Below are positions 51,902-60,585 of a stretch of 64,000 nt of DNA, piece after piece. Made by a program: the position numbers and the translations under genes. The stretch lies in contig NC_047069.1 of assembly GCF_902459465.1 (NCBI RefSeq), positions 13,640,001 to 13,704,000 on the forward strand, read 5' to 3'. How positions within the stretch are numbered: the stretch's first letter is position 1; every line of letters starts with the position of its first letter. Under the pieces are notes generated by a model. The model did not search any database. It saw only the letters and a list, made by a program, of their open reading frames with translations, and was not told where the DNA came from. The stretch comes from Asterias rubens. Lineage: Eukaryota.

Positions 51902-54900
51902 TCAACACTCGGGAGGCATGGTAACAACAAATGTTTCGTCAGGATTCCCAATGCACATTCTATGCAGGATTTGTAGGCACTTCTTACAGTACCAGCCAGA
52001 GTCTCTCTGTGTCTCAGAGTCTCTCTGTATCTTTGCAATCTTCCTGACAAAGTCTTTGGCCTCACTACGCTTGGCAAGCTCCTCCAGCAGGAGATGTACA
52101 CTTCTTTCCACGATGTCATTTTGTGCTACCAGTGTTTCACTGTAGAGTGTTTCAAGATCTCTTCTATGGCGAAAGACCAAATAACTATCTCCTTTCAGTT
52201 TAAATACAGCAACAATAAGATCAAACATGTCTTGATGATATAGCTCAACTTGAAGGGACCTTCTTAGTGCAACATTTGTAAAAATGTTACCAACTGTGGT
52301 TGAACACTCCTCATCCAGGGTAACATTGGAGAAATCTGAAGAAAAGAAAAGAAAAATATTTGAGAAATAATTAACTATTGGTTTATTTGTTAGGCTCTAC
52401 ATGCAAACCTAAAATTATAAATGTGGTATCAGAAGTCAAATTTATTTGCCTAAGTCATGTTGTTTTTTTATACACCTTTATTAATGCAAGTCACCAGACA
52501 TACATGGCCTAAAGGCCACTTTAAGGTTTGGACTACAAATCAACTATTTTTCCATGGGCCGTTGCCACCTACTCCAGGGGCTGAAACAGGAGTACAGTCA
52601 ATATGGATGTAGGCTTGGGAATCGCCCATCAGAAGCCTGGCTGGTAGAGCAGAAAGCAGTACATCCCCAACTGTTAGTGTCATGAACAGGACTTGAACCC
52701 ACACTCTGCTGAATCCGGTGCTCTTAGTCGCTAGGCCATGACAAGCCATGGAATTTATCATTATTGTTGAGCTCTCACAATGAAACTTTTTAATAATAGT
52801 AATAATTGTGGCTTCTTATATAGCGCACATGTCCGTCACCCAGTGACGCTCCCGGTGCTGTAACATACAGTATTTCCTGACAGATAAGGGACTACGTTTG
52901 AAATTATGAGACCTAATTCTGATAGCACTATGTAACGCTGTGGCACAATTTGCTACCGATTTTACGAGCGATTGAAAATCACAAATCTTGTTCTTTGTCT
53001 ATAATGCCTTACCTTGAGTGTTGAATTCTCCCTTTGCAATGCATTCAAACTCCTTTTTAGTAGCTCTACCAGCCTTCACTGTATAGACCTGGTGTGGAAT
53101 CATCAAGCCTTGTAATTGAATCTCATCCTTCCCTTGAGTGTCCATCCAGTTTTGGTTAGGACGGTCCGGGTTGTGCAGACATGCACACAGTTGCAGAGCA
53201 TTGCAGTTGAGCCTATGCAAACCTTTCACAGTGGCTGTTCTGTTTTGCTCACTTAACTGAATCTCCAATGGTTCATCTATCATAAAAGACAAACATACTT
53301 TGGTTAATTGTGTCAGGTACATGTACCTCTATAACCTCCTGGTTTAAACGATGATAATCACATCGTCGGTTCATTGCAGAACCAACGCAAAGCCCCGTAA
53401 AATCCTGTTCCCAGAACTTTGTACTGTAATTTGCACATTTGGCTTACATGAAAAGACAGGCTGCCACAATTGTTTGTCACCGAATTCGGCTTACATGGGA
53501 GGCAAGTCCATGGAGGTGAAAATTGTAAGTCTTAGCATCCGAGATTTCAGCAAACCACGGTAGAATTTTTGCCTGGATAGACTTAGGGATTTGTCAGTGG
53601 AAATATCCATTGCAGATTGGAAATGGCGGCGGATGGCAAAGTACTCTCAAAGATGAATTTAAAGGTCTGAAACACTTACAGCTAGATACGAGTTGATCAG
53701 TATCAGTAGTATCCTCTGTGTCTGTGGGGGAGCATCCTGAGGAGCCAGGTTTCTTCTTTATCAGTTTTAAGAAACATCCCAATACACCAATAGCCAATAC
53801 AATAGAAACAATGACGAGAACGACGAATGCAGCCATTGTAGAATCTGATAGATAAAGATAATGTGCGCAAACCAAATTAAAGATCTCCAGTTTTGTTAAG
53901 GGAGTGGTATGATCATTGGCAAAAAACTAATAAAAAATATATAGATGTGTAACGAACTGAAACTGTGCGCCCCGCCGGTGCGTTGGAGTGGCCCTGCCGG
54001 ATCTTGGAGGACAACGCTCCCACAGCAGCTGGCTTGAACTCTTGGTGAACTGTTTAGTGATTGGACGAATTATTGATAATGTATAACAATGTATAACAAA
54101 ATGATAATTGTGTGCTGACCGGATGCGTTGTTTTGGTGCCCGATTCTAGCAATGTATTGTGTGATTAAGTTGTGCAGACAGACCAAATGTTGAGTTCAGT
54201 GAGTGAGCATTGAATAAGTTGTCCTTCTCGAAGTATTAAATAAACAGTGTGTTTCATATCGAATGGAATTTGAGTTCGTTTGTTTTTCTGTCTGCGTTTG
54301 CCTACAGAGCAAACAAGGACCCTGGCAGTACGTTACAGATGTATAAAATAAAAACTCACTAAAACTAGATTATTTCAAGTTTTTAAAAAAGATTTTCACC
54401 GTAAAATCTGAAAACCTCTTAAGACAAGGTGACACACATTTAGTACATATAAATGTAGCGTAGACTTTGCTTTTCTGGTTCGTACATTTTTCAAGGAGAC
54501 AAGGATTGTTACAATGTATTATTGTGTTTTCTGAGCGTCTGACGAAGAGAGCTTTGAATTGACACAATACAACTCTTACATTCATCGAGCTTACTAGGAG
54601 AGGCATCCCTGGCTACCGGACAACCCAATCGCCCAGCAGGGGGCAGCTAGTGATGGAAGTTACACCGCGGAGTTTTGCGAGTGCCCCCGACCAGCAAAAC
54701 AGCCCTGGCTACCAGGCTACTCAATTGCCCAGCAGGGGGCGGCTAGTGATGGAAGCTACACCACAGAGTTTTGCGAGTGACCCTGATGGGCCAAACAGCC
54801 CTAGCTACCGGACAACCCAATCGCCCAGCATGGAGCAGCTAGTGATGGAAGCTACACCTCGGAGTTTTGCGAGTGCCCCCGACCGGCCAAACAGCCCTGG

Positions 54901-60585: not shown

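Follow-up and report, generated by a model that had tools for sequence, protein, structure and literature searches.

Among the closest described systems to the gene analysed here are the TNFR-superfamily death receptors (TNFR1, Fas, p75NTR, EDAR and the invertebrate TNFRs with death domains). TACI, BCMA, BAFF-R and Fn14 are not known to carry a death domain. The ectodomain of Grindelwald (Grnd) is described as holding eight cysteines (PMC8024323; PMC11377715) engaged in four disulfides, with an X2 hairpin at residues 35–54, Phe46 and the spacing C57-x3-C61-x11-C73-x3-C77, and its sequence homology to TNFRs is called very poor (PMC8024323). In the same source, an Asp-x-Leu-type hairpin tip is ascribed to the TACI/BCMA-type receptors. 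A preprint on grnd-like receptors gives C-x2-C-x2-C as the other TNFR signature beside the grnd CXXCXXXC and mentions that one grnd homologue, from a coral, carries a death domain (10.1101/2024.07.27.603686).

The locus described below lies on the minus strand of a 64,000-nucleotide stretch of Asterias rubens DNA (the window). It is a spliced sea-star gene encoding a predicted type I membrane protein, and this protein is likely an immune or cell-death receptor.

Gene structure, transcripts and surroundings

Eight in-frame minus-strand coding exons between 60585 and 51902 of the window sequence encode 449 amino acids followed by a stop codon (1350 nt; Table 1). All seven introns of the eight-exon gene have GT-AG ends, the exon phases match and an in-frame stop was found 5' of the start ATG. 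The motifs quoted in the first-pass annotation of this DNA were located on the minus strand at the limits given there, and the non-coding first exon falls outside them.

Table 1. Features of the gene, with positions in the window
Feature	Position	Strand	Evidence
5' UTR exon, non-coding	61767..61934	-	contigs X1 and X9 join it to the ectodomain exon; GT donor
Start-codon exon (ATG 60585-60583, first 8 codons)	60562..60651	-	AG acceptor, GT donor; N-terminus identical in P0005 and P0014
Coding part of exon 1	60585-60562	-	reading frame
Coding exon 2: signal peptide, ectodomain Cys41 and Cys45	59308..59432	-	residues 3-28 strongly hydrophobic (hydropathy peak)
Coding exon 3: Cys53-Cys110 of the 10-cysteine module	58318..58520	-	8 Cys invariant in 9/9 rows
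Coding exon 4: Thr/Pro-rich stalk	57421..57483	-	matches P0014
Coding exon 5: stalk	55976..56047	-	read-through beyond the donor meets a stop at 55928, as in database model P0005 of 178 aa
Coding exon 6: TM helix, basic cluster, acidic linker	53680..53844	-	TM at residues 165-188 (53839-53768); hydropathy up to 3.1
Coding exon 7: cytoplasmic FN3-like domain, invariant Cys248 and Cys250	53013..53276	-	match to second repeat of Patiria P0011
Coding exon 8 (coding part and stop)	52335-51902	-	frame, GT-AG joint
Predicted death-fold domain, residues 316-408, within exon 8	52028..52306	-	
C-terminal helix with C-x2-C-x4-H (Cys422, Cys425, His430)	51950..51988	-	invariant in 9/9 rows; helix 117-127 of the exon-8 model
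Stop codon (51904-51902) and 3' UTR	51445..51904	-	contigs span 51445/51458-52148; AATAAA at 51798

Contigs of four public runs were compared with the window; none of the runs is on record as RNA, and the contigs omit introns at the predicted sites. In two of the four runs (X1 and X2), a single contig ran from the ectodomain exon through the TM exon into exon 7, and contigs of X1 and X9 carried the 5' UTR exon spliced upstream to the ectodomain exon. The 215 letters separating these two in the contigs equal the sizes of the two exons that lie between them (90 + 125). A second stretch of 141 letters corresponds to 63 + 72 + 6, and the Asterias amurensis orthologue P0014 carries a two-residue insertion in the same place. 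Beyond exon 7, 66 (X1) and 75 (X2) letters were left, which in either run lead exactly to a 30-base overlap with the exon-8 contig that follows, and from these leftover letters and the overlap we infer the exon 7–exon 8 joint. With this joint, the X1, X2 and X9 contigs place the exons in one transcript, as the first-pass annotation had assumed, and so does P0014 (455 aa), which is collinear over its full length with 78–96% identity by region. The Asterias rubens database model covers exons 1–5, the annotation splitting the gene into models of 178 and 108 aa.

The encoded protein is composed of a signal peptide (called from hydropathy alone), a ten-cysteine domain (residues 41–110), a Thr/Pro-rich stalk, one TM helix, exon 7 (218–305) and exon 8 (306–449). 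The type I single-pass topology was assigned from hydropathy peaks and the basic cluster following the TM helix; together with the ten conserved cysteines, it is a trait shared with the TNFR superfamily. Because of the signal peptide, the single TM helix and the basic residues behind it, all parts C-terminal to the TM helix are predicted to be cytoplasmic.

Reading through exon 5 to the stop at 55928 yields the ectodomain-only P0005 of 178 aa, and the TM exon is absent from P0020, an isoform in Patiria; these are possibly soluble forms or annotation artefacts. Comparison of the contigs with the window between 52029 and 58483 (exons 3, 6, 7 and 8) revealed at least 21 coding differences in 19 codons, 17 replacing the residue and two silent. 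Exon 7 contains 13 of the 19 listed variant codons, and some of its variants are the residues of the Asterias amurensis orthologue. Balancing selection or mixed populations could possibly account for these variants.

Two introns of the gene contain tandem arrays: a 96-base minisatellite of 14 copies in intron 5 (54607–55937) and a 31-base array of about 33 copies in intron 4 (56181–57195). The minisatellite keeps open a 378-codon frame on the plus strand, most likely because its unit length is a multiple of three; a Pfam match of this frame lay below the cut-off. Elsewhere in the window, a cytochrome P450 gene (21406–30903, minus strand) had three exon frames above the Pfam cut-off, and an isochorismatase-family exon was recognised by Pfam on the plus strand (43338–43733), which is probably part of a nicotinamidase gene. 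Two paralogous long exons on the minus strand (3121–3942 and 12354–13133) encode a hydrophobic stretch and then a Pro/Gln/Tyr-rich tail ending in PPSY; Pfam gave no match for either of them.

The ten-cysteine ectodomain and its distribution

All six proteins compared contain ten cysteines, the last being Cys110 in the window protein, with spacings of 3–6, 5–7, 3–4, 2, 2, 16–19, 5, 3 and 15–16 residues; two of these conserved positions are additions to the first-pass account. In each of the six, F or Y directly precedes the third cysteine, and by its position this aromatic residue would be equivalent to Phe46 of Grnd. The C2 region consists of C-x2-C, 16–19 residues, an extra cysteine, 5 residues and C-x3-C, and not of C-x3-C-x11-C-x3-C or CXXCXXXC. 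No Asp that could form an Asp-x-Leu-type tip is present from Cys53 to Cys58, the presumed hairpin position, in the window protein.

The first-pass annotation had made a match of the ectodomain to TNFR profiles a test of its proposal, and such a match was not obtained. No TNFR-type Pfam family was detected at E <= 0.5–1 in eight ectodomain-bearing proteins (P0001, P0002, P0005, P0006, P0010, P0012, P0014 and P0021), and a PDB sequence search with the ectodomain retrieved no TNFR chain at E <= 10. As the homology of Grnd itself to TNFRs is poor, the missing profile match lowers the likelihood of TNFR membership but leaves the fold possible. Because C-x2-C-x2-C is the other TNFR signature, a TNFR module of a non-Grnd type is as plausible as a Grnd-type one. 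Judged by profiles, cysteine count, spacing and the DxL tip, the family was not filed with TNFR, Grnd or TACI members. A TNFR-like fold of the ectodomain appears moderately probable, and the binding of a TNF-family ligand is proposed tentatively, with doubts prevailing. Two TNF-domain matches were found in the genome, at 11.60 Mb of C11 (L015) and 6.85 Mb of C14 (L016). The latter is named ectodysplasin-A-like, and the EDA-like protein P0025 is the candidate ligand in Asterias rubens.

The Grindelwald/TACI-like label given at first pass stood in part. The hairpin-type spacing of the four N-terminal cysteines, the F/Y before the third and the closing C-x3-C resemble the X2 module, Phe46 and C73-x3-C77 of Grnd. 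These features, together with the presence of an EDA-like ligand in Asterias rubens and the grouping of Eiger with EDA (10.1101/2024.07.27.603686), would suit a true deuterostome Grindelwald relative with an X2-C2 fold, an Eiger/EDA-type ligand and a death domain kept or gained, as the earlier reading had it. Other features speak against the label: there are ten cysteines instead of eight, C-x2-C instead of C-x3-C and a loop of 24 residues instead of 11, the DxL tip is missing and the searches above returned no TNFR match. Moreover, the gap between the third and fourth cysteine is 3–4 residues long versus the six inferred for the ligand-binding tip of Grnd, and the origin of Grnd has been placed within pancrustaceans (10.1101/2021.12.26.474206; PMC11377715). 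A true relationship with Grindelwald is considered quite unlikely.

A search pattern for the cysteine core, written from the family's own sequences, was found at only three genomic places, all of them paralogues of this gene (eight matches including overlapping loci, in the 996,154 six-frame codons examined), which indicates that the pattern would not be a chance occurrence. The three paralogues, including the window gene, are located on the same contig. P0001 (13.196–13.208 Mb) shows 47–62% identity to the window gene in the folded domains. The third paralogue (13.717–13.731 Mb, plus strand, L011:3258–L012:7233) is oriented head to head with the window gene, about 15 kb past its first exon; its cysteine module is separated from the TM helix by three EGF-type exons, and its tail is 27% identical.

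One single-sequence search of 1.84 billion representative sequences yielded 11 matches, 10 of them real. The named relatives came from Asterias, Acanthaster planci and Patiria miniata. Among the real matches there were also three unnamed fragments and the window's own tail; no named relative from outside the asteroids was among the 11. In the Acanthaster and Patiria proteins, EGF-like repeats follow the cysteine module and two repeats precede the tail. Database names of family members are 'uncharacterized' or 'tenascin-like'.

The family thus varies in its modules: the third paralogue and the Acanthaster and Patiria proteins have EGF repeats, and there are one or two FN3-like repeats. This would also be expected of a fast-evolving receptor recognising microbes or non-self cells rather than TNF, in which exon shuffling brought together a lineage-specific Cys-rich module, FN3, a death fold and, in some members, EGF repeats, its likeness to Grindelwald amounting to cysteine richness. 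The lack of a sequence match to TNFR or Grnd, the residue replacements in 17 of the 19 variant codons listed and the parallel expansions in oysters of proteins with a cysteine-rich ectodomain, TM helix and DED (PMC8195603) are consistent with it. On the other hand, only three genomic copies and no large expansion were found, and the cysteine spacing with the aromatic residue before the third cysteine resembles TNFR modules. Non-TNF recognition is an explanation to be taken seriously, albeit an unlikely one.

Cytoplasmic FN3-like and predicted death-fold domains

The Patiria relative P0011 has two repeats, and exon 7 aligned with the second one (33%, E 3e-4). A profile whose N-terminal part was taken from P0011 matched fibronectin FN3 repeats with E of 9.1e-5 and 3.2e-4, two repeats being in register, and a wider profile gave E of 1.9 and 2.5. 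For the window's own exon 7, no FN3 match was obtained in Pfam or PDB, and its direct hhalign comparison with FN3 (E 0.0074) was off register, one of 60 shuffles scoring as high. In the same, weak test against I-set (E 0.25), nine of 60 shuffles scored as high; FN3 gave the better score here and in the P0011-based profile search. A conserved Tyr fitting the pattern of the FN3 E–F strands is invariant in 7/7 rows, as are Cys248 and Cys250. Taken together, the alignments indicate that exon 7 is very probably an FN3 domain. It is the less usual part of the receptor, and the first-pass annotation had left it unnamed.

For exon 8, the predicted structure comprises six main helices (residues 14–102, pLDDT about 90) on which five models agree (mean 76.5–78.4), and it can be superposed on death folds of known structure. 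Its top three matches among these were Toll-pathway death domains, Pelle, IRAK2 and MyD88, with 7–16% identity, rows within 1 Z being regarded as tied. Chains 1d2z_A and 3mop_K are presumably Pelle and IRAK2, as the structure titles name only the complexes. Exon 8 had no match to Pfam Death (PF00531), its locus is missing among the 88 genome matches of this family and hhalign gave no significant score. The tail was filed as a predicted, highly divergent death domain that does not belong to Pfam Death, and the death fold suggested at first pass was retained on the strength of this six-helix model and its structural matches.

The absence of the usual Trp, also reported at first pass, was confirmed: the helical core has no Trp in eight of nine family members, whereas each of 30 Pfam death domains from the Asterias rubens genome has at least two. 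This absence could point to a decoy or damping receptor that binds the ligand while its degenerate, Trp-less death domain fails to nucleate or blocks adaptors, the TM-less forms acting as soluble sinks, for which P0005 and P0020 would be suitable. However, the domain is intact and predicted to be well folded in all nine members despite pairwise identities of 23–91%, the short models may be artefacts of annotation and the contigs listed splice on to the TM exon. A decoy or damping role is considered quite unlikely.

The C-x2-C-x4-H motif of the C-terminal helix does not vary among the nine rows, and Cys422, Cys425 and His430 together with Cys316 form a candidate structural metal site. An in-frame 18-base duplication (51997–52032), also present in Asterias amurensis, lies in exon 8 in a low-confidence loop behind the death fold. 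Among the 88 Pfam Death matches of the genome, near-identical tandem death-domain exons are clustered on C19, C1, C22 and C18.

Proposed mode of action and comparison with known systems

In the preferred reading, the protein would work like a death receptor. A candidate ligand, possibly a TNF-family trimer, would cluster the ten-cysteine ectodomain; by analogy with receptor logic, clustering would juxtapose the cytoplasmic death folds and nucleate adaptor assembly, with FN3 serving as a spacer or scaffold ahead of the death domain, and the recruited death-domain adaptors would lead to immune or cell-death signalling. Arguments for and against a ligand-clustered ectodomain coupled to a cytoplasmic, adaptor-recruiting death fold are evenly balanced in our estimation. 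That the top three matches to exon 8 all belong to the Toll pathway hints weakly at partners of the MyD88/IRAK type and at NF-kB, less at FADD/caspase-8. The most far-reaching version, held to be quite improbable, is a sea-star class of TNF receptor working without the usual adaptors, in which a Grindelwald/TNFR-like module would be joined to a zinc-clamped FN3 (Cys248, Cys250, Cys316, Cys422, Cys425 and His430) and a Pelle/IRAK-like death domain, the ligand would trigger a myddosome-type filament and the metal site might be a redox or stability switch.

Invertebrate death receptors are counted by means of profile matches, and both ends of this family escape profiles. If the signalling proposal is true, sea stars own a death-receptor-like system with a layout of cytoplasmic FN3, Trp-less death fold and Cys/His clamp. 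The family would also provide a candidate receptor for the EDA-like ligand of sea stars and an example of how far death domains drift. If the ectodomain is not TNFR-like, the gene would be one more lineage-specific shuffled immune receptor.

In the mainly open-access literature searched, neither a report on this family (six locus/protein identifiers appeared in 0 papers) nor a description of a TNFR-like receptor in which a cytoplasmic FN3 precedes the death domain was found. The first-pass claim of an undescribed receptor class was overstated, as the coral grnd homologue with a death domain (10.1101/2024.07.27.603686) and IGFLR1 (PMC3099712) precede it.

As in Grnd (PMC8024323) and the grnd-like receptors (10.1101/2024.07.27.603686), there is one small N-terminal cysteine-rich module that closes with C-x3-C and has an aromatic residue in front of its third cysteine. 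In contrast to Grnd, the window family has ten cysteines rather than eight, CXXCXXC rather than CXXCXXXC, a longer loop and a shorter hairpin tip. Grnd is described as signalling via Traf2/Veli motifs, and the available accounts make no mention of FN3. TACI, BCMA, BAFF-R and Fn14 likewise use a small ligand-binding cysteine-rich module and are similar to Grnd in overall topology (PMC8024323), but their Asp-x-Leu-type tip is missing in the window family. The closest structures to exon 8, Pelle, IRAK2 and MyD88, belong to cytosolic kinases or adaptors, whereas here a membrane protein carries the fold as its tail.

In the TNFR-like receptor IGFLR1, a predicted cytoplasmic death domain came to light solely through fold recognition, with MyD88, Pelle and FADD as modelling templates; the receptor has A1-B2 and A2 modules, binds IGFL proteins and none of 18 TNFs, and FN3 is not mentioned in the available text (PMC3099712). 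The Crassostrea expansions resemble the sea-star family in combining, in a lineage-specific manner in a marine invertebrate, a cysteine-rich ectodomain with a death-superfamily domain, but they involve DED, TRADD-N and variable effectors in about 50 copies, while the sea-star genes have FN3 and a death fold in three copies (PMC8195603). Relative to the sources available, the coral example already couples a death domain to a grnd-like receptor, and what is new is the probable cytoplasmic FN3 combined with a Trp-less death domain flanked by invariant Cys and His residues.
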